Of a DNA stretch of 64,000 nt, positions 19,558 through 61,273 are shown in pieces. A program made the position numbers and the translations under genes. How positions within the stretch are numbered: position 1 is the stretch's first letter; each line of letters starts with the position of its first letter. The DNA comes from a virus. The notes beneath the pieces were generated by a model. The model saw only the letters and a list, made by a program, of their open reading frames with translations, did no database searches and was not told the origin of the DNA. The stretch spans positions 35,751 to 99,750 of IMG/VR virus record IMGVR_UViG_3300044639_001193. One strand, 5' to 3'.

Positions 19558-19872
19558 ATGGAAGAACCAGAGTATGCGTGGCGTTACAGCGCACGCTGTA
19601 AGGGTGAAGACACCGACATCTTCTACCCACCACGAGATAAAGAACAATACAAAATCATTGCTAATCAAGCAAAGGTATTTTGTTTTGGAGAGAATAAAAA
19701 GAACCCGTGTCCCGTACAAAAGCAATGTTTATGGGATGCAGTTAAACGTGAGGAGCCTCACGGTATTTGGGGGGGCTTGAGTCATAGAGAAAGAAATGCT
19801 TTAATTCGTAAGTGGAAGAAATCGCATAAAAAGAAAATGTCGTTGCAAGAATTTATCTTAACTAAGGAATAA
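19558..19872 (+). CDS. whiB: WhiB-family transcription factor
   Basis: W...A.C....D.FYP, AK..C, CPV...CL..A, GIWGGLS..ER. Confidence 0.92.
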   Translation: MEEPEYAWRYSARCKGEDTDIFYPPRDKEQYKIIANQAKVFCFGENKKNPCPVQKQCLWDAVKREEPHGIWGGLSHRERNALIRKWKKSHKKKMSLQEFILTKE

Positions 19873-36342: not shown

Positions 36343-36984
36343 TTACTTGGCGAGAAGATTAACTCGCAATAATGAGTCACCCTTCTTTAGGTTGCATAGT
36401 CCATGAGCAGGTCTAATGTTGCCTAACTTATCGTGACCACCTTTGATTAAAGGAATTAGGTGGTCTAAGTGCAAGCCCATTGTTTTATGCCCTGTGCGAG
36501 GTAGTGATAGGTCAATATCAGTACCGCAAACCCAACACGCTACGCCGTAATGGTCAATAACTTGTTGCAGGTTATATGCGTGGTGACCGACTCCGTATTT
36601 TCTTGCTCGCCTTGCTCGGTCATGATTAGCGTACTTCTCCTTGTTGTGGAGATAGTTAAAGTGGTCACCAACTTTTTTCTTGCGTGGGTGTTTATCTTTC
36701 CACTCCTGACTTCTTTTGCGAGCCTTATCTTGTAAGTCGGGGCGGTTAGCATAACGCTCATTTCTTTGTTCTTTAGTTGGTGTTTTACCAGCGAGAGTTC
36801 TTTTGCTGACACTCTCTCGGTTGATACGGCGATACCACTCAGGGTTCTCTGAACGGTACTGCGCTGTTTTCTTGCGAGTGTATTCTCGCGAGGCTTCAAC
36901 GCATGGTTGGCAAGGCGTTTCTCCTATTGACTTGTGCCGTCTATAAGAGGCGCGAGTACCGCAAGGGCTAAGTTCTTTAGCCAT
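36343..36984 (-). CDS. HNH endonuclease with N-terminal Zn-binding motif
   Basis: CGT..SY.RH....E.PC..C; CWVC, LDHLIPL.KGG.....N..PAH..CN. Confidence 0.85.
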   Translation of the reverse strand: MAKELSPCGTRASYRRHKSIGETPCQPCVEASREYTRKKTAQYRSENPEWYRRINRESVSKRTLAGKTPTKEQRNERYANRPDLQDKARKRSQEWKDKHPRKKKVGDHFNYLHNKEKYANHDRARRARKYGVGHHAYNLQQVIDHYGVACWVCGTDIDLSLPRTGHKTMGLHLDHLIPLIKGGHDKLGNIRPAHGLCNLKKGDSLLRVNLLAK

Positions 36985-37141
36985 TGACTTGCTTCTCTAC
37001 GCAATTAAAGCAGAACCACATAACAACTTCTTTATTGCCTTGTATATCTTTGCCATTGGCTCTAACTCCTTCTTGGTTACAACTATCACATAACCATAGT
37101 TCATCACTAGCAGTTAGTTTTCGTGCAGTTACATATCCCAT
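36977..37141 (-). CDS. Zinc-finger microprotein (54 aa)
   Basis: SDELWLCDSC...WFCFNC. Confidence 0.55.
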   Translation of the reverse strand: MGYVTARKLTASDELWLCDSCNQEGVRANGKDIQGNKEVVMWFCFNCVEKQVNG

Positions 37142-37607: not shown

Positions 37608-37785
37608 TTGTATTTCTCCTTTTGTTTTGGGCTTGGCTTGTTAGGTGGTACTTACTGCATATCGGGCATTTGTAACTTGAACATGGCTTCTTGCGTGACG
37701 ATAGCCAATTTGTTTTCCATATTTTATTTAAGGCTCTCTCTGCACTCGTCTGTGAGTTGAAAGCCTTTTTTTCCTCGCACCGCAT
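37588..37785 (-). CDS. Zn-finger protein
   Basis: C..K..F.....A.......Y.CP.C..YHLTS. Confidence 0.65.
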   Translation of the reverse strand: MRCEEKKAFNSQTSAERALNKIWKTNWLSSRKKPCSSYKCPICSKYHLTSQAQNKRRNTNATTTN

Positions 37786-37788
37786 TGT

Positions 37789-38028
37789 CTATCCTTCCCA
37801 TAGTTGTTGTTCATTTTTGTTGTCTTGTATATCGTTTCGTACTTCATGCTTGCATGAGTTCATTGTTCTATGCTTCTTTGACTTCACTTCATACTCTTTT
37901 GTTTGCTCATTAAGAACACTCCAAAACCAATTATGAAATTCGTCTTTACCTATGAGGTATTTATCGTCATGCGTTAGATAGCAACTCTTTGCTGTCGGGT
38001 GTTTCTTTAGCGATAGATTGAACCTCAT
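37789..38028 (-). CDS. Hypothetical protein ending EQQLWEG
   Basis: AAGGAG RBS. Confidence 0.6.
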   Translation of the reverse strand: MRFNLSLKKHPTAKSCYLTHDDKYLIGKDEFHNWFWSVLNEQTKEYEVKSKKHRTMNSCKHEVRNDIQDNKNEQQLWEG

Positions 38029-38641
38029 CTGCTTCTCCTTCCCATAGTTCTTTATCTATTGTTAGTAGTTCTGTTTCACACTCAACGCATAGGTCTTGTG
38101 GCTCACCGTCACACTCAAACTGCTCATGGCATTGGTCGCATGAGTGGTGGTAGTTGTCACCGTAATACTCCCGATAGATTTCGCAAGGCGTTCCTTTCTC
38201 AAAAGAACCTTGCAATACAACTTCGGGAATACCTTTGCGATAGATATAAGTTCCGTAGAACGCCATACCTTCCTCGGTGAATTTGTGAGTGATAGTTACT
38301 TTTGGATTGTCTTTAGACAACTGACTTAGAACTGGTACTGGTGGTGACCACGCTGTTTGGAAGTTGATAACTAAGTCACCGCCTTCCCAACAAGTATCGT
38401 CATACTTCTCTGACCACTCGCCGTCATTTAAGAACATCACATCACTAGCGTTCCACTTTGTTCCCCAATTTTCAATACGCCACTCGTACCACTCAGCACC
38501 AGTAGGCATTGGAACTACCTTCTCAAAGTCAAAGAGTGCTTCATCACCTTCACTTTGAGTTGTGGCAATTTGCTTTAGAAGTTTGTTTAACATTTTTGGC
38601 TTACCAACAATAGTTAATTCGTTACTGCACCAATTCGGCAT
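37967..38641 (-). CDS. DUF1281/YubB ferredoxin-like protein
   Basis: MPNWCSN, WYEWR.ENWGTKW, FQTAWSPP. Confidence 0.8.
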   Translation of the reverse strand: MPNWCSNELTIVGKPKMLNKLLKQIATTQSEGDEALFDFEKVVPMPTGAEWYEWRIENWGTKWNASDVMFLNDGEWSEKYDDTCWEGGDLVINFQTAWSPPVPVLSQLSKDNPKVTITHKFTEEGMAFYGTYIYRKGIPEVVLQGSFEKGTPCEIYREYYGDNYHHSCDQCHEQFECDGEPQDLCVECETELLTIDKELWEGEADEVQSIAKETPDSKELLSNA

Positions 38642-39233
38642 TTGCTTCTCCTTCTGCTTGTAGTCGGTGAGTTAGTGGGCGATACACGATTGACTTACCG
38701 CCACCAGTTTTGTACCCGTAGCGAGCAAACCTGAATTGAAGTGCGCTAGTAGTAATGCCTAACGCCTTTGCTACGGCATAGACACTAACGCCCCTCTCAA
38801 CCTGTGCATAAGCAAGTTGTGTAAAGTCCTCGGCTTCTTGACGATACTTCTTTCCCCTACCTCTAACTAACTTTGCTTTTGAGTAAAGTTCTTTTAACTC
38901 AGTTAATACATCATTAGGAATTTGCACTCGGTTAATGACTTCTCTATTGAGTGTGCGAGTAGGTATTGGTGGTATTGGCAAACTTGCGATTGCTTTTCTC
39001 ACCTCGGACTCATTATTTGTTTTAGAAGTTTCATATAACCTAATTGACTCTCTAGTTATATTAAGAACATCTGCAATACATTGTAGAGTCCAACCTGCTT
39101 TAGATAGTTCTGCTGAGTAAGCCCTGCGCTCTTTAAGTGCTAAGCCCCTAAGTATGTCTGCAACTTCTTTAGGCAAAGTGTGCTTACTCTTTTGTGGTAG
39201 TTCTACTGTAAGTGTGACTTTTTCTCTTGTCAT
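38622..39233 (-). CDS. Tandem-HTH DNA-binding protein
   Basis: GWTLQ.IA.VL.ITRESIR and GVS...VAKALGIT.SAL.FR. Confidence 0.7.
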   Translation of the reverse strand: MTREKVTLTVELPQKSKHTLPKEVADILRGLALKERRAYSAELSKAGWTLQCIADVLNITRESIRLYETSKTNNESEVRKAIASLPIPPIPTRTLNREVINRVQIPNDVLTELKELYSKAKLVRGRGKKYRQEAEDFTQLAYAQVERGVSVYAVAKALGITTSALQFRFARYGYKTGGGKSIVYRPLTHRLQAEGEANAELVQ

Positions 39234-39670
39234 TTGATTACTACTCCGTTCTTGATAGTGGTTTCTAACTCCTTTTGCAGGTCTGCCATTTTTTCATCAA
39301 AGGCTTGTCGTGCGTAGTCGTGATAGTGGTCGGGTATTTGCGCTAAGACTTCTTGAATAGCATGGTGAGGAATATAAGTAGTTCTATACCTTAAAGCACC
39401 GTCTTTTCTAAAGCCTCGTACAACTGCATTATGAAAGGTTGCGGTGTTTGCTTCATCACCGTATCCCAAGTGGTATTGCAGTTCCTCTAGTTGATACTTC
39501 TCTTTGTCGGCAGATAAAACATATTTTCTTAGATTTTGGTCATAAACCATTTGACCCATTTCAATAAATATGCGTTCTGTTTCGGCTAGTTGCACATAAC
39601 AACTAAAGCCAAAACTTGATTGTGCATTGACGGTTGCTTCTGTTGTTGGTGCGATTGTTGTTGTAGTCAT
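39230..39670 (-). CDS. Hypothetical protein (MTTTTIA start)
   Basis: GGAG RBS before 39670. Confidence 0.6.
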   Translation of the reverse strand: MTTTTIAPTTEATVNAQSSFGFSCYVQLAETERIFIEMGQMVYDQNLRKYVLSADKEKYQLEELQYHLGYGDEANTATFHNAVVRGFRKDGALRYRTTYIPHHAIQEVLAQIPDHYHDYARQAFDEKMADLQKELETTIKNGVVIK

Positions 39671-39672
39671 TT

Positions 39673-39966
39673 TTATTTCTCCCATAGTTCTTTATCTAGT
39701 TGTTCTACTTGTGTATCTATTTGTATTTCACTTATGCGCTTAAAGTCAAAGCGCATACTCTCCATAATTGCGTCTGCAATTCTGTCGTCACCCTCAGTAC
39801 CATTAACAACTGTTTCCCACTCATCATCATTGACAACTGGCAACTCTGTTGTTTCTGCCCACTCGCTAAACTCATACATGAATTCGGTTTTGTCAAACCA
39901 AGTAATATAAATTACATCATCAGGGTTTAACTTTTCCAATAACGCTATTGCTCTTGATACTTGCAT
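39673..39966 (-). CDS. Acidic paralog 4
   Basis: PDD...WFDK; ends QLDKELWEK. Confidence 0.7.
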   Translation of the reverse strand: MQVSRAIALLEKLNPDDVIYITWFDKTEFMYEFSEWAETTELPVVNDDEWETVVNGTEGDDRIADAIMESMRFDFKRISEIQIDTQVEQLDKELWEK

Positions 39967-39969
39967 TTT

Positions 39970-40278
39970 TTATCCTTCCCATAGTTGTTCATCAGTTATA
40001 CCTGCCTTGTAATTAGCCATGAAGTCTGCAATAAACTTCTCGGTGTGTTCATCTGTTTCTTTCATCATTAGTTCTAAGTCTTTACGGATACCAGCACCTA
40101 ACATTTGGTCATTGAATTGCACATTAAAGTTATCTGCAACTAAATCCCACTCGCTATCCATTAGTAACCTTGCTTCGGTATCTAAGTGCTTAAAGCACTC
40201 TTTATCCCATAACGCAACAACCAGTTGTGTATCGGGTTGATACTTCTTTAGCAGTTCTTGTAACTCACTTACTTTCAT
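39970..40278 (-). CDS. Acidic paralog 3
   Basis: PDT...LWDK; ends DEQLWEG. Confidence 0.7.
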   Translation of the reverse strand: MKVSELQELLKKYQPDTQLVVALWDKECFKHLDTEARLLMDSEWDLVADNFNVQFNDQMLGAGIRKDLELMMKETDEHTEKFIADFMANYKAGITDEQLWEG

Positions 40279-40612
40279 TTGTTGTTCTCCCCTCGGTATC
40301 CCATAGTTCTGTATCTGACTCTGCTTCTTTTACTTCACCAATTAGTCGGCTCAATACATCTCGGCAACTATCGTTAAAGTTTTCATTGAACCGTTCCCAA
40401 ATATAATCGTCATTGTCTATGCTGTTAATAATTTCTTTAACAACATCATCAGTAACAAATTTATTTGTATCTATTACTTCATCATTTTCATCTGTGTATT
40501 CCATTTGACTAAAGGCTTCTGCAATATCGTCTTTGTTGATATAAGTAACCCACACTTCATCATCAGGGTTCATACTGCTAAAGCGTTCTGCAAGGTCTTT
40601 TGCTTTTGACAT
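40265..40612 (-). CDS. Acidic paralog 2
   Basis: PDD...YINK; DTELWD near the end. Confidence 0.7.
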   Translation of the reverse strand: MSKAKDLAERFSSMNPDDEVWVTYINKDDIAEAFSQMEYTDENDEVIDTNKFVTDDVVKEIINSIDNDDYIWERFNENFNDSCRDVLSRLIGEVKEAESDTELWDTEGRTTNESK

Positions 40613-40617
40613 TGTTG

Positions 40618-40947
40618 CTACTCCTTATCCCATAGTTGTTTATCTAGTTGTTCATCATAAGTTGCTTCTGATTGTTCATTACTCCACTCGTCTAACGCTT
40701 CAATTAGTGATTGAGTAATACCGTCACCAACATCAGGGGTGTCATATTGCTGTTCTGTTGCGTACTCCCATGACTCATTGAAGGCTTCATTAACTTCTTT
40801 ATCAGTTAAGTTGTGTTCATCTTTGAGTTCTGTAAGTGTTTCCTCAACCCACTCTTTGCAGAGTTCTTTATCCCAATAAAGAACAAGTAAATGTTCTTTA
40901 GGGTCATAAGCAGATAGTTCTTTGATAATACTTTCTACTGTTGCCAT
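40618..40947 (-). CDS. Acidic paralog 1
   Basis: PKE...YWDK; ends QLDKQLWDKE. Confidence 0.7.
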   Translation of the reverse strand: MATVESIIKELSAYDPKEHLLVLYWDKELCKEWVEETLTELKDEHNLTDKEVNEAFNESWEYATEQQYDTPDVGDGITQSLIEALDEWSNEQSEATYDEQLDKQLWDKE

Positions 40948-42593: not shown

Positions 42594-42620
42594 TTTATTT
42601 ATTCCGTTTCTTTTTCTCCT

Positions 42621-42648
42621 ATCGGGGTAGCCCTGTTGCTACCCCGAT
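42621..42648. other. Intergenic stem-loop
   Basis: ATCGGGGTAGC...GCTACCCCGAT, 11-bp stem. Confidence 0.6.
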
Positions 42649-42658
42649 ATTTATTTAC

Positions 42659-44695
42659 TTACTTAACTAGATTGCGTGAGATTGCAAGGCGCACTAAAGA
42701 CTTACCTAAAGTTGTAATGTCTTTAGCAGATTGAAGTTGTGTTACCAACTCAAACGAGTGCCGTACTCCGTTTAAGTAATCGGCACTTAGATTGCGACCC
42801 TCATATAGCAACGCTTGGCAAGTAAGAACGCCAGCGTTTTTCATTTCGGTAACGGCTTGTTCTCCTGCTTCACTATCCCAAGCACCGTCGGTAATCATGC
42901 AAAGCAACTTAATTGGCTTGTCGCTCTCAGCAAGTACCTTCTTAGCGTAAAGGATTGAGTCTTTAGGATTTGTGCCACCGTTAGCACCTGAGTCGCGGAT
43001 AGTTGTACCAGCCTTCTCGTTCTTGTCATAAAGAAGTGTGGTACTGCTATCAAAGAGAACAACTGTTGTTGTTGCTTCTACTGACTCTAGTGCTTTCTTA
43101 ATAGCCCACATGGATTTGTAGGCTTCTTTAGCGTTATGCCCTGCCATTGAGGAACTTCTATCTAACAAAATTACTGCTTCAATAGCAGTAACATCATCAC
43201 GCCCCTCTTGCCACTCATCAAAACAAGTGTCTAAGTCATTACCCATTAGATAACGAGTTGCATTTATTTTTCCGTTGTCGGTTTGCTTTAACCAAGCAGG
43301 GTCGTGGTCTGCTCGCAAGCGTTCTAACTCTCGCGCAAAGGCTCTCGCACTAAGCACTAACTCAGGGCTTGCAGGAACATTTGAGTAGCGAGCCTTGTCG
43401 GGTGTCTTTGCATTACCGCCAGTTAGTTCAACCTCAACGCCAGCCTGTTTTGCAATTCGGTTAATCTCTTTTGATAGTTGCTCAACAATATCGTTCATAA
43501 CATCATTGAGAACATCAGTAACTTGTTGATTGCTACCAGTAACGCCTTGCGCGTTACCAGCACTATTGCCACCGTTACCGTCACTATCATCAACTTCATC
43601 ACTTAGTTCATCATCAAAGTCCTCAAACTCATCAGCAAACTCATCATCAGAAGTTTTCTCATCTTGGTCAAAAGAATTATCTTTTGACTTTGGTTGAGTA
43701 GCACCACCGCAACCACCTGCGTTGATTGGCTTGCTATCGCTATCTGAATTGTCTTTAGAAGTTTCATCAGACTTATCTTGGATAACAACATCAAGCACAA
43801 CATTTTTCTTTTGATTAGCGATTGCAGTTTGTTGGTCACGCTTTTGTTGTGCGGTCTTTGCAGGTCGCACACTAGAACTTTCCACGCCCTCTACTGGGCG
43901 ATTACCATGACCGTTAGGGCTATGGATACGGATAGTTACTGTTGTGCCTTCACCGTTACCGTTGCCACCGTCTTGCGGTGATTGCGGTTGCTTAGGCAAG
44001 TTGTCCAAAAGATTATTGAACGCAACGATAAGTTCTTTTGCTCTTTCGGTATCGTCATTACTTGCAAATATCAGTAAGCGATATTCGTCAATAATGGTTG
44101 CGAGTGCTTTTATGTCGCTCGGTACTTTGTATTTATCTACTGCAAGTTGTCGCAACTCAACTGGTAGATATTGCCGACCATAAACCAAAGGGAACGCTGT
44201 TGTTACTGCTTCATCATTACCGAGAAGGTAATCAACGATTGTTGCAGTAAGCCAGTTTTCAACTGTTGGTAGATAACCAGTTAGCAAAGTTTCAATACGC
44301 ATATCCTCTAGGCAATTAAAACTTTCCCAAAGTGCTTGTGCATTGTCTTGTTCTCTTATCCATATCGGCAAGGCATGACCATTTCTAGGCGTATATAAAA
44401 GATGACTCAATTCGTGGAACGATAACCCTTGCAAAGAAAGAATTGAGTGTGCAGATAGGTCAAACTTAATCTCAGATAAGTTCAACCACATTTCGCTAGT
44501 GCTTGACCAAGCAGGTGCTTTATATTCGGGTTGCTCAACGATATTAACTTTTATTCTGCGACCCGTTAAAACACTATTGACTCGCGCCAATACTGTTGCG
44601 ATTGAGTTTAAGTGCTTGCGTGTAACTTGTTTTGCTTGTTCCGCTTTATCTATTTGCTCTTGCAATAGTTGCGGTGCTGAGTTTCCTGCTCTCAC
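42659..44695 (-). CDS. CobT-like vWA protein with an HExxH domain
   Basis: FHELSH, N.LED.RIE, acidic linker, MIDAS DRSSS...GGT...TDG. Confidence 0.85.
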   Translation of the reverse strand: MRAGNSAPQLLQEQIDKAEQAKQVTRKHLNSIATVLARVNSVLTGRRIKVNIVEQPEYKAPAWSSTSEMWLNLSEIKFDLSAHSILSLQGLSFHELSHLLYTPRNGHALPIWIREQDNAQALWESFNCLEDMRIETLLTGYLPTVENWLTATIVDYLLGNDEAVTTAFPLVYGRQYLPVELRQLAVDKYKVPSDIKALATIIDEYRLLIFASNDDTERAKELIVAFNNLLDNLPKQPQSPQDGGNGNGEGTTVTIRIHSPNGHGNRPVEGVESSSVRPAKTAQQKRDQQTAIANQKKNVVLDVVIQDKSDETSKDNSDSDSKPINAGGCGGATQPKSKDNSFDQDEKTSDDEFADEFEDFDDELSDEVDDSDGNGGNSAGNAQGVTGSNQQVTDVLNDVMNDIVEQLSKEINRIAKQAGVEVELTGGNAKTPDKARYSNVPASPELVLSARAFARELERLRADHDPAWLKQTDNGKINATRYLMGNDLDTCFDEWQEGRDDVTAIEAVILLDRSSSMAGHNAKEAYKSMWAIKKALESVEATTTVVLFDSSTTLLYDKNEKAGTTIRDSGANGGTNPKDSILYAKKVLAESDKPIKLLCMITDGAWDSEAGEQAVTEMKNAGVLTCQALLYEGRNLSADYLNGVRHSFELVTQLQSAKDITTLGKSLVRLAISRNLVK

Positions 44696-44714: not shown

Positions 44715-46070
44715 TTAGTTGCGGATTAGTGTTGTAGTGCTGTTGAGTTCTTGCTCTAGGTCGTGGCGGTGTGCTTCTAAAAGAAGTTTCACACTTGGGC
44801 GTTCATCATCATTGAAGTTGTTTAGGAAGTTATCTACTGCATACTCGTAACCCAACTCTTGTGCAAACTTCTGAAAGTTCTTTAGCAAGCGAGTTGAGAG
44901 TGGTGTTTCGTAGATACCTTGAATTGAGTCTGCTCTCATTTGCTGAACTAGATTAAGCAAGGTTGCAGACTTAATGAACTTCTTTTCAATTTCAATGTCG
45001 TACTCAAAACGCAACTTGTGGTGAAAGCGGTCAATAAACGCTTGATTGAGTTTATTGTTGCCATGATATTTGTCGTTGTAAGAACCAACGATTAAAACAT
45101 TTTCACCTTTTGGAATTACCTCGCCCCTGTTATCAAGCAAAGTAAGTGTGCGAGTGCTATCAAGTGTTGGGAATAAAACGCCCGATTGCTTTGCAATAAT
45201 GAAAGTCAATTCGTCTAAGTGAATTACTGCATTACCTTCACGCCAGCACTCAGTAAAGCCACCGTCTTGCCAAAACAAATTACCAATTTGATTAGGCATA
45301 ATTTTTCCAAACAACTGGCTACTTTCAATTCCTGCATTGAAGTTAATGCGGTAGTAATTAAGCCCACGCTTACCTGCATAAGCCATTGTGCTTGTTGTCT
45401 TACCTGTTCCTGCTTCACCAACGATTGCAACATTGAGATTATTTATTAACGCATGGTCATAAATATCTGTTTCTGTTTTACCGTTAGCAAAAGTTCTTTC
45501 AATATAACCTGAAATCTCAGGGTCACTTAAAGAAGGAACAAAAGAAAGATTGCTTGTTGATTGAGTTGCTTTGCGTTCAATGACGATTGCAGGTGCAACT
45601 GCTACTGGTACTGGTGTAACTGTTGGTGTTGATTGCGTTGTTGTTGCTGACTTGTCGCTTCTCCCGTCGGAACGGTATTGCGATAGCAACTCAGGGTCTT
45701 GCTCTATTTGTGCATACACTTCTTTAAGCACCTCTCCGATAGTTTGCTGGCTGATTGTTTTGTCACGCAAACCAAACTGCTTTGTCAATTTCTGAATTAG
45801 CACGATTGGTTTTTCATTTGTAGTGATTGCATGAATATCTGTTGCTGTTAATGGTGTTGATAGAACTGAACCAACGATTAAAGAAGTTTCGCTATCGGCG
45901 TTACTGACGATTGCTAAATAACTATCGTTGTTCCAAGCATTATCGGTACCGCGACCACCATTGGTAGTGCGTGACCATGCAAAGTTCTTTCCGTTGTAAT
46001 TGGCGATTAGATATTGCTTTAGTGTTCCGACTTCATTTGTTTGCCCTGTAATTAGGATTGCGTGTGACAT
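44715..46070 (-). CDS. MoxR/CbbQ/CobS-like AAA+ ATPase
   Basis: GEAGTGKT, WQDG, HLDE, N..Y.G...LNQAF.DRF. Confidence 0.88.
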   Translation of the reverse strand: MSHAILITGQTNEVGTLKQYLIANYNGKNFAWSRTTNGGRGTDNAWNNDSYLAIVSNADSETSLIVGSVLSTPLTATDIHAITTNEKPIVLIQKLTKQFGLRDKTISQQTIGEVLKEVYAQIEQDPELLSQYRSDGRSDKSATTTQSTPTVTPVPVAVAPAIVIERKATQSTSNLSFVPSLSDPEISGYIERTFANGKTETDIYDHALINNLNVAIVGEAGTGKTTSTMAYAGKRGLNYYRINFNAGIESSQLFGKIMPNQIGNLFWQDGGFTECWREGNAVIHLDELTFIIAKQSGVLFPTLDSTRTLTLLDNRGEVIPKGENVLIVGSYNDKYHGNNKLNQAFIDRFHHKLRFEYDIEIEKKFIKSATLLNLVQQMRADSIQGIYETPLSTRLLKNFQKFAQELGYEYAVDNFLNNFNDDERPSVKLLLEAHRHDLEQELNSTTTLIRN

Positions 46071-47576: not shown

Positions 47577-47952
47577 TACCTTTAATTTATTTTTTCTAAG
47601 TAGTAACGCCAATATATTTATGCAAGTGTTATGCAAGGCGAGAGTAAGAATTATTCTTACCGATAATCAGAACCCATACTCGTTCATAAGTTTTGCAAAA
47701 GAAGTTTGATTGTTGTTATCCAAACGAAAGTTTGCGGGCAATAGCAGACGATAAAAATATGTCACAAAATTATTTTTATTTAATTTGCAATTTAATTTGC
47801 AAAATAAAAATAATTTTTATTTTTATTTTCTGCCACTCGGTCGCGAGGCGAGGAGTTGCTGATAAGAGAATTGAACCATATCGGGGAACAAGGCGCAACT
47901 ACCCCCAAAGTGAGCGTGTTCTGAGCGTGAGTCGGGGGCAGAATTGACCCAA

Positions 47953-48024: not shown

Positions 48025-48622
48025 CAAAAGATATTTAGTTAATGATAAATAAATACAAAAGATATTTAGTTAATAGTTAATTAACGACGGCGCATCTATT
48101 TTTATTGTTGTTTATTTATTTATTATTTAGCAAGTAATAGATAGGTAAATAAAGCGCATGAGTTCTTTCCTTTTATTTTGTAATGATTACTAATAGAGAT
48201 AGATACTAAAGAGATATAGATATAACTATTACCTTGTCACTTATCTTGTTGTTAGTTGTTAGTGCTTGCATAAGATAGTTGAACATAATAAGTAATACAC
48301 AATGCCTATGAAACATATTGTTAGTGATAGTTGTATAAACATAACAACATAACAAGTGAAACATATTGTTAATGATTAAGTGATAGATATAAATAAGTGA
48401 TAGATAAGTACCTGATAACAACAATGAAAGGTGCATGACAGGCTGGTGTTACAACTGCACGCAAGCAATAAATAAATAGCAGTAGCCAATAGTTAAAGTA
48501 ACTCACTATCAAAAGCACTATCAAACTATTTAATTGTTCTGATAACAACGCATAGATAGAACAATAAATACTTCTTTAAGAAACAAGTTGTAAGTGTAAT
48601 CGTGCAAACTAAATATCTTTTG
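48025..48622. repeat. CAAAAGATATTTAGTT, two direct copies and one inverted copy
   Basis: Direct at 48025 and 48056; inverted at 48607-48622. Confidence 0.8.
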
Positions 48623-51765: not shown

Positions 51766-52179
51766 ATGATAAAACAATCACAGCATAAAATTAATGGCAA
51801 GATTAACGAGCAGTTTAAAAATCATTTAGAACAAGAGGGTTGGACGACCACCACCTATCCAGATTACAACCACCTCAAAGAAGAGCACGCCAAAAAGAGA
51901 GAAGTACTTAATAAAAATGTAAAGACCTTTGGTAACTCAGTTACACTTGCCGCTCCCATGGTCGTGCAAGATGGGGCCGTCGCAATTGCCTATGAAAACG
52001 TGCTCAAAGATTATTTTAACGCAAAGGTAAAAAACTTTCCGCTCTGGTCAGGTTTGCCCGACATTACCGTTAAGCCACAACCCAATTTAGATATGATGAT
52101 TTCTTGGCACGTGAATGTTCCCAAGCATTTAGTGATTAACCCTGATGACTTGCTGGAAGAAGACCTCTGGAACTCATGA
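51766..52179 (+). CDS. Hypothetical protein
   Basis: GAGGGAG RBS. Confidence 0.55.
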   Translation: MIKQSQHKINGKINEQFKNHLEQEGWTTTTYPDYNHLKEEHAKKREVLNKNVKTFGNSVTLAAPMVVQDGAVAIAYENVLKDYFNAKVKNFPLWSGLPDITVKPQPNLDMMISWHVNVPKHLVINPDDLLEEDLWNS

Positions 52180-58652: not shown

Positions 58653-61112
58653 TTGAAAGCACTGCGTACTATCGCAGCACTATTTGTCGCATTATCCGCA
58701 TCCTTATTACCTTCAATATTTGCAGAATCTGCCCACGGTAATTCACCTAACCCTGGGTTAACCGCCGAAGTCTATGACGTACTTGGGCAAAATGGTGCTC
58801 CCTTTATTCCACAAGGACAATCACCTGTGCTTGTTACTACGGTTCCTAACGTTTCTTTTGACTGGGATAGCGGAAGTGTTCTTGGCGGCCCAAGCGAAGA
58901 TGTAATTGTTCGCTTTATTGGGTACATAACAAGCCCAACAACACAAACTGTTTTATTTTCAACAGATGCAGATGATGGTACTCGTCTTTACATTGACGGA
59001 AGTCTTATAGCGGATGATTGGGTAGATAAAGGTGGTGGAGGAACTACAAGCGCACCCATCTCTTTTACCGCAGGAGTTTCCCGTTCTATTGAACTTATGT
59101 ACTACGAAAATGGTGGGGGAGCGAGAGCCGTTCTTTTGTGGGACCAAGGAGGTGGAACGAATGTTGTTCCTTCTTCAGCATTTACAACTTCACCAACAGT
59201 AGTTATACCACCAGAGGTACTAACCATAGGTGCGCCAACAAACTTAACAGTAGTTGATGGTCCTACTTCTGCATTACTCACCTGGAACGCTCCTACGGAT
59301 GGAAATAGACAACCAGAACGCTACGCTATTAGTTTTACGTGTGATGGTTGCAATGGTTGGGGAATTGCCACAGGAAACGTGGGAGACGCTAATGCACTAA
59401 ATACGACGATAACAATTAACCATTCGTTGCTTGAGTCTTTAAAGCCAAGCGGTACGGTGTGGTCATTTCATATTAGGTCAGATAACGATACATTAGCACT
59501 TTACTCTGCAAACTCAAATGTTGTTACATTAAAAATTGGAAAAACTGCAGAAGAAATTGCTGCAGAGCAGGCAGCATCTGAGGCCGCTATAGCAGCCGCT
59601 ACCGCAGAAGCAGCAAGGATTACAGAAATAGCAAGATTAGCAGAAGTTGCACGACTAGCAGAAGTTGCCAGATTAGCAGAGGTTGCAAGATTGGCTGAAG
59701 TTGCAAGACTTGCAGAAGTTGCAAGATTGGCTGAAGTAGCACGACTTCAAGCAGAAGCAGCAGCAGTATTGGCGGCACAGCAAGAGGCTGCAAGAATCGC
59801 AGCCATCACTGCAGAAGTTGCCAGACTCGCAGAAGTTGCCAGACTCGCAGAAGTTGCCAGATTAGCAGAAGTGGAAAGACTTGCAGAAATTGCTAGGTTA
59901 GCAGAAGCAGCAAGGATTACAGAAATAGCAAGATTAGCAGAAGTTGCACGACTAGCAGAGGTGGCAAGGCTTGCAGAAGCAGAAAGACTTGAGGCTGCAA
60001 GAATAGCAGCAGCGGTTGAGGCTGCTCGCGTAGCAGCAGAAGTTGAGGCTGCAAGAATTGCTGCTGAAGTTGAGGCTGCAAGACTAGCAGCAGAAGCAGC
60101 AGCCAAAGCAGAGGCTGCAAGAATTGCTGCAGAACAAGAGGCTGCTCGTGTAGAAGCAGAAAGAATTGCAGCGGAAGAAGCCGCAAAGAAAGCAGAAGCA
60201 GAAAGACTTGCTGCAGAAGCAGCAGCAGCGAAGGCTGAAGCAGAACGAATTGCTGCTGAAGAAGCAAAAGCCAAAGCAGAAGCAGAAGCAGAAGCAAAAG
60301 CCAAAGCAGAAGAAGAACGATTAGCAGCGGAAGCAAAGGCTAAGGCTGAAGCGGAAGCAAAAGCCGCAGAAGAAGCAAAGGCCAAAGCCGATGCAGAAGC
60401 CAAGGCTGCTGAAGAAGCAAGACTAAAAGCAGAAGCAGAAGCAAAGGCTGCGGCAGATGCTGCTGCAAAAGCAGAGGCAGACCGTCTAGCAGCAGAAGCA
60501 GCATCAAAGGCAAGGGCTGAAGCAGATGCAAGGGCTGCTGCTGAAGCAGCACGAGTTGCTGAGGCAAAAGCAGCAGCAGAAAAACTTGCAGAACAGGAAG
60601 CGCTGAAGAAGGCGGCAGAAGAAGGTAAACTAAGTGAAGAACAAAAAACCGTTATTGCAACTGAGTTAATTGCATCAGTTGCTCCTGGAGAATCAATTTC
60701 CGCTGCAGCAATCAAAGAAGCAGGCATTGAGTATAAGGATTTACCTCCAGAGACTCCCGTAGATGTTCGTACCGATGAGCAAGGAAACGCAGTAGTTATT
60801 TCTGCTGAAGTTGCTGCACAAGTTGAACTGCTACAAGACCCTGGAGCCTTACTTGCCGAAGCATTTTCTGACCCAGGAGCAGCATTAGCAGCCCTTGGAA
60901 GTATTGGCGCCGACATGTCTACCGAAGAACGGGAAGAGGCAACCGACATGGTTGTTGCAACGGTTGTTGCCGCAGGTGCTGCTATGAACGCAGTTGGTGC
61001 AGCAGCAGGTTCTACTGGAAGTTCATCTTCTGGTGGAAGTAGTGGAGGCGGAAGTTCTGGTGGTGGAGGCTCATCAGGTGAGAGTAAAGGCGTAAGGAGA
61101 CGAAAGCCATGA
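58653..61112 (+). CDS. Exported PA14 + Fn3 protein with an Ala/Glu coiled-coil stalk
   Basis: Signal peptide; ADDG.RLYIDG..I.DDW, YYENGGGA; APTNL..L.W.AP; AEVARL repeats; hydrophobic and basic tail. Confidence 0.8.
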   Translation: MKALRTIAALFVALSASLLPSIFAESAHGNSPNPGLTAEVYDVLGQNGAPFIPQGQSPVLVTTVPNVSFDWDSGSVLGGPSEDVIVRFIGYITSPTTQTVLFSTDADDGTRLYIDGSLIADDWVDKGGGGTTSAPISFTAGVSRSIELMYYENGGGARAVLLWDQGGGTNVVPSSAFTTSPTVVIPPEVLTIGAPTNLTVVDGPTSALLTWNAPTDGNRQPERYAISFTCDGCNGWGIATGNVGDANALNTTITINHSLLESLKPSGTVWSFHIRSDNDTLALYSANSNVVTLKIGKTAEEIAAEQAASEAAIAAATAEAARITEIARLAEVARLAEVARLAEVARLAEVARLAEVARLAEVARLQAEAAAVLAAQQEAARIAAITAEVARLAEVARLAEVARLAEVERLAEIARLAEAARITEIARLAEVARLAEVARLAEAERLEAARIAAAVEAARVAAEVEAARIAAEVEAARLAAEAAAKAEAARIAAEQEAARVEAERIAAEEAAKKAEAERLAAEAAAAKAEAERIAAEEAKAKAEAEAEAKAKAEEERLAAEAKAKAEAEAKAAEEAKAKADAEAKAAEEARLKAEAEAKAAADAAAKAEADRLAAEAASKARAEADARAAAEAARVAEAKAAAEKLAEQEALKKAAEEGKLSEEQKTVIATELIASVAPGESISAAAIKEAGIEYKDLPPETPVDVRTDEQGNAVVISAEVAAQVELLQDPGALLAEAFSDPGAALAALGSIGADMSTEEREEATDMVVATVVAAGAAMNAVGAAAGSTGSSSSGGSSGGGSSGGGGSSGESKGVRRRKP
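59584..60620 (+). repeat. Degenerate coding repeats (AEVARL / AEAEAKA)
   Basis: 18-bp periodicity; duplicated block near 59603 and 59901. Confidence 0.85.
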
Positions 61113-61273
61113 AAGTACTAAAAGACATGATTGACCAACTATGGACTCTGCTTGGCATGTTTATTGCTTGGGTAGTTTTAGACGGAAGCGCTAAAACCAT
61201 TGTTGGATACGCAATCATTGCAACACTATTTGCATGGGCTATTACGTATCCCCTGCGTAACCGCGACGAATAA
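61109..61273 (+). CDS. Two-helix membrane microprotein (54 aa)
   Basis: AAGGAG RBS; ATGA coupling. Confidence 0.6.
   Translation: MKVLKDMIDQLWTLLGMFIAWVVLDGSAKTIVGYAIIATLFAWAITYPLRNRDE

Follow-up and report, generated by a model that had tools for sequence, protein, structure and literature searches.

In a stretch of 64,000 nucleotides of viral DNA (the window; bases 35751-99750 of the 99,750-bp IMG/VR virus record IMGVR_UViG_3300044639_001193, which is complete and has direct terminal repeats), six leftward genes encode a peptide of the form x-[EQ]-L-W-[DE] close to the C-terminus of their products, and every one of them does so with the same 10-mer, AACTATGGGA. Comparison with related phages shows strong purifying selection on the Leu-Trp (LW) pair of this peptide in four or more unrelated protein families of a phage clade, and selection very probably acts at the level of the peptide and not on the 10-mer. 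We favour, with moderate confidence, the interpretation that a short linear docking motif is formed by the LW-acidic tail and displayed on a flexible C-terminal stalk, through which its carriers would reach a common partner.

The six exact copies of AACTATGGGA all lie on the minus strand, between positions 37796 and 40637 of the window (Table 1). Dinucleotide shuffles gave an expectation of 0.13 copies and never more than one copy per shuffle, and no seventh copy was found anywhere in the whole 99,750-bp record. A preliminary description of this DNA had already listed six such tails; the peptides that we recovered match that list and their positions agree with it, the last copy beginning at 40628 where about 40629 had been given. 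Its caveat that CTA-TGG specifies Leu-Trp elsewhere too was also borne out, since CAACTATGGACT encodes an internal QLWT in the open reading frame (ORF) at 61109-61273. Across the phage genome the motif falls within the last six residues of four proteins, compared to 0.38 expected.

Leu-Trp tails on unrelated phage proteins

Four of the six carriers are acidic paralogs (isoelectric point, pI, 4.05-4.4) with 24-30% mutual identity. The other two are a DUF1281-type protein and a small basic protein of 79 aa. Profile-profile comparison of the DUF1281 protein with the paralogs gave an alignment confined to the 14 columns of the tail, and comparison of the 79-aa family with the paralogs aligned nothing, in agreement with the earlier claim that two of the carriers are unrelated to the other four. 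Neither Pfam nor PHROGs assigned a function to the paralogs, the 79-aa protein, p146, p170 or a 127-aa family described below. The motif does not occupy a fixed place at the end of the chain. Ten residues continue beyond DTELWD in the 115-aa paralog, and IDKELWEGE of the DUF1281 protein is followed by a variable end of 21 residues, making 24 residues past the Trp in all. Considering all carriers, the distance from motif to C-terminus ranges from 3 to 26 residues, and the chain may finish with G, K, E or another residue. The DUF1281 gene also runs 62 nt into the beginning of the 79-aa gene (37967-38028, minus strand); this overlap arrangement and the variable extension after the motif are kept across all relatives.

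The carriers belong to an operon with the order MoxR-type AAA_5 ATPase, vWA protein, p192, p119, DUF6011, one to four paralogs, p146 and a helix-turn-helix (HTH) protein in either order, DUF1281, the 79-aa family, small genes and an integrase. The same order was found in every relative whose contig reaches far enough. The number of paralogs varies from one to four per relative, and in one relative of 99.9 kb they are placed after DUF1281 instead of before it, so cassettes come, go and change place; such recombination may be helped by the conservation of gene ends. The vWA gene and p192 are separated by a gap with a strong, GC-rich hairpin of 12 bp (42620-42649), which might attenuate transcription inside the operon or affect the stability of its RNA.

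Conservation of the peptide was assessed in homologues of each carrier. When 120 homologues of the paralog family were aligned, the L and W of the tail were the sole invariant columns, and LW[DENQ] was located no more than 20 residues from the C-terminus in 118 of the 120, at distances from 3 to about 18. Alignment of 17 divergent long-form members (20-38% identity) again left only the L and W columns invariant. L199 and W200 were invariant among seven orthologues of the DUF1281 protein with its zinc ribbon (38-44% identity), and so was LW among seven orthologues of the 79-aa protein (22-35% identity). The motif was retained where the next start is 22-45 nt off and where the protein runs 10-18 residues further.

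The distribution of the tail is narrower than that of the domains that carry it. A search of 1.8 billion cluster representatives showed that the N-terminal domain of the paralogs (about 75 residues) is widespread, and because the short members of the family (73-90 aa) are devoid of the tail, the long helix plus LW tail is an added module of one subclade. A search with the C-terminal region of the DUF1281 protein returned three close relatives only, and the tail is absent from distant DUF1281 phages outside the clade. Extra unrelated carriers were detected in distant clade members, namely a 170-aa family (two members, 31% identity), a 59-aa ORF and a 61-aa ORF. Outside the operon, proteins that end in LWN[SKQ] comprise a 127-aa family (four relatives), a 72-aa protein and a 137-aa protein of the window, which may be a further carrier of a related tail and for which the homology search gave near-identical relatives only.

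Taken together, a short motif is kept in variable, non-globular sequence and recurs on unrelated proteins, as is typical of short linear motifs, which have 3-10 residues. For it to stay invariant in more than 150 diverged proteins, selection must act on the peptide. The motif is easily recognised, it is the most conserved single feature of these fast-diverging phage proteins, and it recurs on unrelated folds.

Codons beneath the tail

Among 46 distinct operon tails the Leu codon was CTA in 36, TTA in seven, TTG in two and CTG in one; relatives of the DUF1281 protein alone use CTA, TTA or CTG. The LWN tails outside the operon use CTC, TTG and CTT, and with operon and outside tails taken together the relatives use all six Leu codons. 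The residue before Leu varied among the operon tails (E, Q, D, S, T, A, F, K or H), and the residue after Trp was D or E in 44 of the 46, through four codons, and N in the remainder. Two relatives carry CTA-TGG followed by AAT or AAC; the purine run is gone and LW is kept. The only pattern common to the relatives is YTN-TGG-(G/A)AN.

The preliminary description had called for a comparison of synonymous and amino-acid conservation in relatives, and this comparison showed a constant LW over changing nucleotides. It had also held that homologues keeping only the purines, with both LW and AACTAT lost, would speak against its proposal. The opposite was found, that is, LW was kept and the purines and AACTAT were sometimes lost. 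The identity of the six copies in this genome can be understood because Trp has a single codon, the codons for Asp and Glu share a fixed GA, GAA and CAA are the common codons for Glu and Gln (65% and 71% genome-wide, respectively) and the Leu codon is CTA.

A candidate docking motif and the alternatives

We propose that a conserved C-terminal peptide leaves the repeated 10-mer as its footprint in the DNA. The consensus of the peptide is an acidic or polar run, then [EQDST]-L-W-[DE], often with x-E after it. The motif is borne by at least four unrelated, non-structural protein families of one operon, at the tip of a stalk that is polar and helical or flexible. A hydrophobic pocket of the partner would receive Leu-Trp, the flanking acidic residues would make electrostatic contacts, and several different small proteins could in this way be recruited to one partner. 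That the motif binds a partner, and which partner this would be, we infer. The candidates are the MoxR-vWA motor that heads the same operon or a host hub, the hub being equally possible. The earlier description had offered an acidic-aromatic docking tail, SSB-tail-like or read by the MoxR/vWA pair, or else a nucleic-acid element. The docking peptide stands as far as comparison of sequences can take it; its definition as a tail of the single-stranded DNA-binding protein (SSB) type and the nucleic-acid branch do not.

Docking peptides common to many proteins are well known in eukaryotic viruses. To our knowledge, shared docking peptides have been documented in phages for few hubs only, for example the clamp and SSB tails, and our literature search found nothing on an LW-acidic phage tail. 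The C-terminal tails of phage T4 gp43 polymerase, gp33 and gp55 bind the gp45 clamp. The tails described here may be analogous in that unrelated proteins of one phage would present a short hydrophobic-acidic terminal peptide to one hub. They differ in that the sequence is not the same, that a search of the genome found no beta clamp encoded by the phage itself, and that the carriers are small uncharacterised proteins and not replication or transcription factors.

Mycobacterial ImuB binds the beta clamp through 352-QLPLWG-357, and LW can anchor there (PMC10421592). The tails resemble this peptide and the canonical clamp-binding motif, QL[SD]LF or QLxLxL, in having an LW pair, sometimes with Gly next to it, in an actinobacterial setting, and in being short, near the C-terminus and flanked by polar residues. 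Positions 4 and 5 of the clamp motif (Leu plus an aromatic or hydrophobic residue) agree with the invariant LW, given that ImuB tolerates Trp at position 5. In contrast, position 1 of the clamp motif requires Gln and position 2 a hydrophobic residue, and in these places the tails have acidic or polar residues (D/E-K/T/E-E/Q-L-W; D/E at the first and K/T/E/Q at the second), so that only the last two positions fit, and we rejected membership of the beta-clamp motif.

The tip of SSB consists of an acidic run that ends in hydrophobic-Pro-Phe at the terminal carboxylate, and T7 gp2.5 has an acidic tail. What the LW tails may have in common with these is a flexible C-terminal tail that combines an acidic stretch and an aromatic anchor and suits docking with several partners. 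The likeness goes no further, since the LW motif, at 3-26 residues from the end, does not reach the extreme C-terminus, Pro-Phe is lacking, the carriers are not SSBs with an oligonucleotide-binding (OB) fold, and the phage genome gave no PF00436 match.

Several observations weigh against the docking interpretation. All carriers come from a single syntenic, uncultured clade, and the small genes after the homologous AAA-vWA pair of the cultured actinophages Cantare and GMA6 have no LW tails. At the nucleotide level, CTA was used in 36 of the 46 operon tails compared to about 18% of Leu codons genome-wide, and a slight extra constraint at the nucleotide level may contribute to this excess. Moreover, identical residues aligned between the paralogs share their codon in 86 of 127 cases, against 54.7 expected. 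Two simple accounts of the codon data were rejected. Biased composition of A-rich initiation regions was discarded as the source of CTA after inspection of the last eight codons of other genes, which showed no enrichment of CTA or A3, and saturation of synonymous sites between the paralogs is ruled out by the same-codon count. Because these sites are unsaturated, common ancestry can account for the CTA of the paralogs, and their codon identity is weak evidence for selection on DNA. CTA was probably inherited, by paralogy or by transfer of tails between neighbouring genes. Its presence in the two unrelated carriers calls either for chance or for a tail transferred from a paralog; each of the two has a stretch of 19-nt identity with one paralog, which mostly follows from identical peptides. 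The CTA excess fits common descent of a transferable tail.

The likeliest of the rival explanations is a specific version of the docking interpretation itself, in which the tail is a client or adaptor tag for the MoxR-vWA motor of the phage. Acidic residues of ligands complete the MIDAS (metal ion-dependent adhesion site) of vWA and integrin I domains, as in integrin ligands of the LDV/IDS type, in Rea1 with Rsa4 or Ytm1 and in CbbO with Rubisco. We know of no LW-acidic ligand of a MIDAS. In this version the acid after Trp would complete the MIDAS, with LW packed alongside; remodelling of the tagged protein, or of its bound target, by the AAA+ ring would follow. The motor is an attractive candidate because of its linkage in the operon and because a MIDAS needs an acidic ligand. 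Its two genes head the same conserved operon, with the in-operon carriers always downstream of the pair in every relative, and translation of the vWA gene showed an intact MIDAS pattern of the DxSxS...T...D type (DRSSS ... GGT ... ITDG). By analogy, the tails may resemble known ligands in having hydrophobic residues beside an essential Asp or Glu, encoded in the same operon as a MoxR-vWA pair with an intact MIDAS pattern. The acidic residue required is D or E after W in 44 of the 46 tails and lies in a segment modelled with low confidence and probably exposed. A preprint on CobST summarises that vWA partners of MoxR ATPases engage their clients through the MIDAS site (10.64898/2026.10.09.757910).

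Several points reduce the weight of this evidence. Tag and motor occur together in all clade members, but because these form one syntenic clade the co-occurrence says little. The related AAA-vWA operons of Cantare and GMA6 have the motor without the tails. In addition, LWN-tailed proteins are encoded at other places in the genome, and Asn replaces the acid in two operon tails. We consider it unlikely that the partner is the phage motor. A broader version, in which the tail is a universal tag read by the MoxR-vWA motor and the small, fast-evolving acidic proteins, DUF1281 and others are interchangeable adaptors, each bringing its own host target to the AAA+ machine, is a speculation that we regard as rather unlikely; if true, it would amount to a modular tag-and-remodel system for host takeover or counter-defence in freshwater actinophages. 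For phage MoxR-vWA pairs, the tail could also be the first candidate for a substrate signal. Whatever the partner, a peptide of 12-15 residues offers an experimental handle on the targets of uncharacterised proteins from abundant, largely uncultured freshwater actinophages.

The tail might instead be an intrinsic element of structure, a helix cap or oligomerisation knob of a coiled-coil-like stalk that has no shared partner and was spread by exchange of 3′ ends. In the AlphaFold 2 (AF2) model of the 102-aa paralog (predicted local distance difference test, pLDDT, 80), a small alpha/beta domain at the N-terminus is followed by a helix of 40 residues (53-93) and a short last helix (96-101) that bears LW, with confidence dropping toward the end. 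A wide structure search with this model gave generic coiled-coil-like long helices only (Z about 5.5), among them a tryptophan-zipper pentamer. No match was found in the PDB, and fold searches returned only uncharacterised phage proteins from BFVD and unnamed viral clusters from the ESM Atlas. In the AF2 model of the DUF1281 protein, built on an alignment of only seven sequences, the tail lies in a low-confidence helix (pLDDT about 40-50). A structural knob would also agree with the differing number and order of cassettes between relatives and with a CTA bias that fits common descent of the tails. However, the contexts upstream of the motif differ widely, from a long acidic helix to a zinc ribbon and a basic region, the distance of the motif from the C-terminus varies, and LW is the sole invariant feature while the stalk drifts, a pattern typical of a ligand motif and not of packing. 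For these reasons a purely structural role appears improbable.

Another alternative is that the conserved unit is a nucleic acid, either an RNA operator or extended ribosome binding site (RBS), or a DNA site for recombination or a repressor at the cassette junctions. Six identical 10-mers in one orientation, 11-22 nt before the next start, are what such a site would produce, as are the excess of CTA and the exclusive use of GAA and CAA before the Leu codon; in addition, an HTH protein is encoded within the cluster and the copy number of cassettes is variable. Part of this element does double as an RBS. From the end of the Trp codon to the next start there are 12, 13, 11, 12, 22 and 17 nt, in order of coordinates. 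In the four copies at 11-13 nt, the W-E-G or W-E-K codons at the 3′ end of the upstream gene give GGGA(A)GGA, which constitutes the RBS of the next gene, in the manner of an embedded Shine-Dalgarno (SD) sequence; at the end of the 79-aa gene, GGGAAGGA is the RBS for a gene that starts at 37785. The codons after Trp thus have a double function (E-G is GAAGGA and D-K-E is GATAAGGAG), and because they are RBS the tail usually stops one to three residues past the acidic position.

This SD role is real but secondary, and it leaves the Leu-Trp pair unaccounted for. The two copies at 22 and 17 nt have separate RBS downstream, GAGGGGAG at 40299, as the preliminary description had pointed out, and AAGGAG (from the K-E codons) at 40628. 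Its view that the motif is not only an SD sequence is strengthened by retention of LW beside these separate RBS and in tails without the purine run. Indeed, Leu-Trp codons are kept where another RBS or none follows, and the purines are lost while LW stays. SD function or translational coupling, which calls for purines complementary to the anti-SD at 5-13 nt from a start codon, was therefore rejected as the cause, with LW kept 17-45 nt from the start, beside a separate RBS and in LWN variants that lack GGGA. The distance from motif to next start varies from 11 to about 45 nt when the window and the relatives are considered. The ATG within CTATGG is in frame with the next gene in one copy only, that of the 97-aa paralog. 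At 39670-39689 (minus strand), the annotated start of this next gene, MTTTT, could be preceded by an alternative start, MGEIKM.

A fixed site on the DNA fared no better. Relatives keep the Leu-Trp codons only and not the 10-mer, with four Leu codons in the operon and six overall, and the motif persists as far as 45 nt from the end of the gene. A conserved DNA site, stoperator-like or a recombination core, was discarded on the variation of the Leu codon and of the codon before it. An attC-like hairpin was also rejected, for 71-nt windows around the junctions folded no better than shuffled sequences (z from -0.3 to +1.1). Neither an Rfam match nor an excess of promoters was found at the junctions. 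The translational operator or fixed DNA site that had been put forward as an alternative is thus not upheld: the 10-mer is invariant in this genome only, matches no structure or Rfam family, and its distance from the start varies. Because the Leu codons and the preceding codon vary, and because the purine run is sometimes lost while LW stays, the readings as SD alone and as fixed DNA are refuted, and it is very improbable that any nucleic acid is the conserved unit. An invariant DNA word at gene junctions can accordingly be a by-product of peptide selection overlapping an RBS.

Finally, that the tail is a functionless by-product of in-frame translation of the RBS (UGG GAA GGA, GAU AAG GAG) with repeated recombination at junctions is equally improbable in our judgement, for although the residues after Trp are exactly those that the RBS encodes and the genes are tightly packed or overlapping, it leaves the invariant Leu unexplained, as it does the retention of the tail beside a separate RBS, with 10-24 residues following, and in LWN tails with unrelated downstream sequence, and invariance across so many diverged proteins needs selection on the peptide.

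Phage genome, inferred host and other terminal peptides

The GC content of the phage is 42.6%. A WhiB-family regulator (Table 1) marks it as an actinophage despite this value. The baseplate J protein was most similar to that of BRock-like Streptomyces myophages, the AAA ATPase had its closest relatives in Brevibacterium and Gordonia phages, and a distant relative of one operon protein was found in an Actinomycetota metagenome-assembled genome. Because of these similarities we infer a low-GC actinobacterial host. The clade comprises uncultured freshwater phages of about 100 kb that probably infect Actinomycetota; the source of the BFVD homologue is given as 'uncultured Caudovirales phage'. Cultured phages gave no match by blastn of the region or by tblastn of two family members, and scans of viral contigs with the four-paralog alignment and with the 97-aa subfamily yielded no confirmed loci; for the metagenome scan the figure is at least five loci.

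Table 1. Coordinates of the tail-bearing genes and other features, in window positions unless stated otherwise; tail DNA is the AACTATGGGA copy
Feature	Position	Strand	Tail DNA	Remarks
79-aa basic protein, pI 8.6	37789-38028	-	37796-37805	ends EQQLWEG
DUF1281-type protein, 224 aa, Cys/His zinc-ribbon-like extension	37967-38641	-	38040-38049	PF18406, E=1.2e-12 (Pfam)
Paralog, 97 aa, pI 4.05	39673-39966	-	39680-39689	ends QLDKELWEK
Paralog, 102 aa, pI 4.4	39970-40278	-	39977-39986	ends TDEQLWEG
Paralog, 115 aa, pI 4.05	40265-40612	-	40299-40308	DTELWD, then TEGRTTNESK at the end
Paralog, 109 aa, pI 4.05	40618-40947	-	40628-40637	ends QLDKQLWDKE
vWA protein, operon head	42659-44695	-		Pfam; MIDAS pattern from translation
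MoxR-type AAA_5 ATPase, operon head	44715-46070	-		Pfam
137-aa protein, rightward block	51766-52179	+		ends EEDLWNS, Leu is CTC; possibly a related terminal tail
WhiB-family protein	19558-19872	+		PF02467, E=1.5e-18 (Pfam)
57-aa protein	G000:C1:25127-25300 (outside the window; window coordinates -10624 to -10451)	+		ends EDLDDEDWEDS

Other proteins of this and related phages have terminal peptides of their own. The AAA ATPases of Brevibacterium phage Cantare (L133 8965-9987) and Gordonia phage GMA6 (L134 8848-10047) themselves have acidic-aromatic ends, GVDWEL and DDEDDELDNAF, respectively. The 57-aa protein of Table 1 has an acidic tail with Trp near its C-terminus and no Leu. In a 54-aa Cys-rich protein (36977-37141, minus strand), GAACTATGGTTA encodes SDELWL near the N-terminus, with codons identical to those of the tails; here the peptide is internal and no acidic residue comes after it. 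A lysozyme-like protein on an unrelated phage contig of 28.5% GC (L129:4833-5336, plus strand) ends in ELELWDKE, which is probably a chance match to the pattern. At the opposite end of the chain, two proteins of relative G002 start with MEFNDRR and MLFNDRR (47662-47871 and 48083-48400, minus strand), and three consecutive genes of the phage genome share the start MSASDNLS (G000 85378-86698, plus strand). Shared terminal tags may be a wider habit of this phage group.

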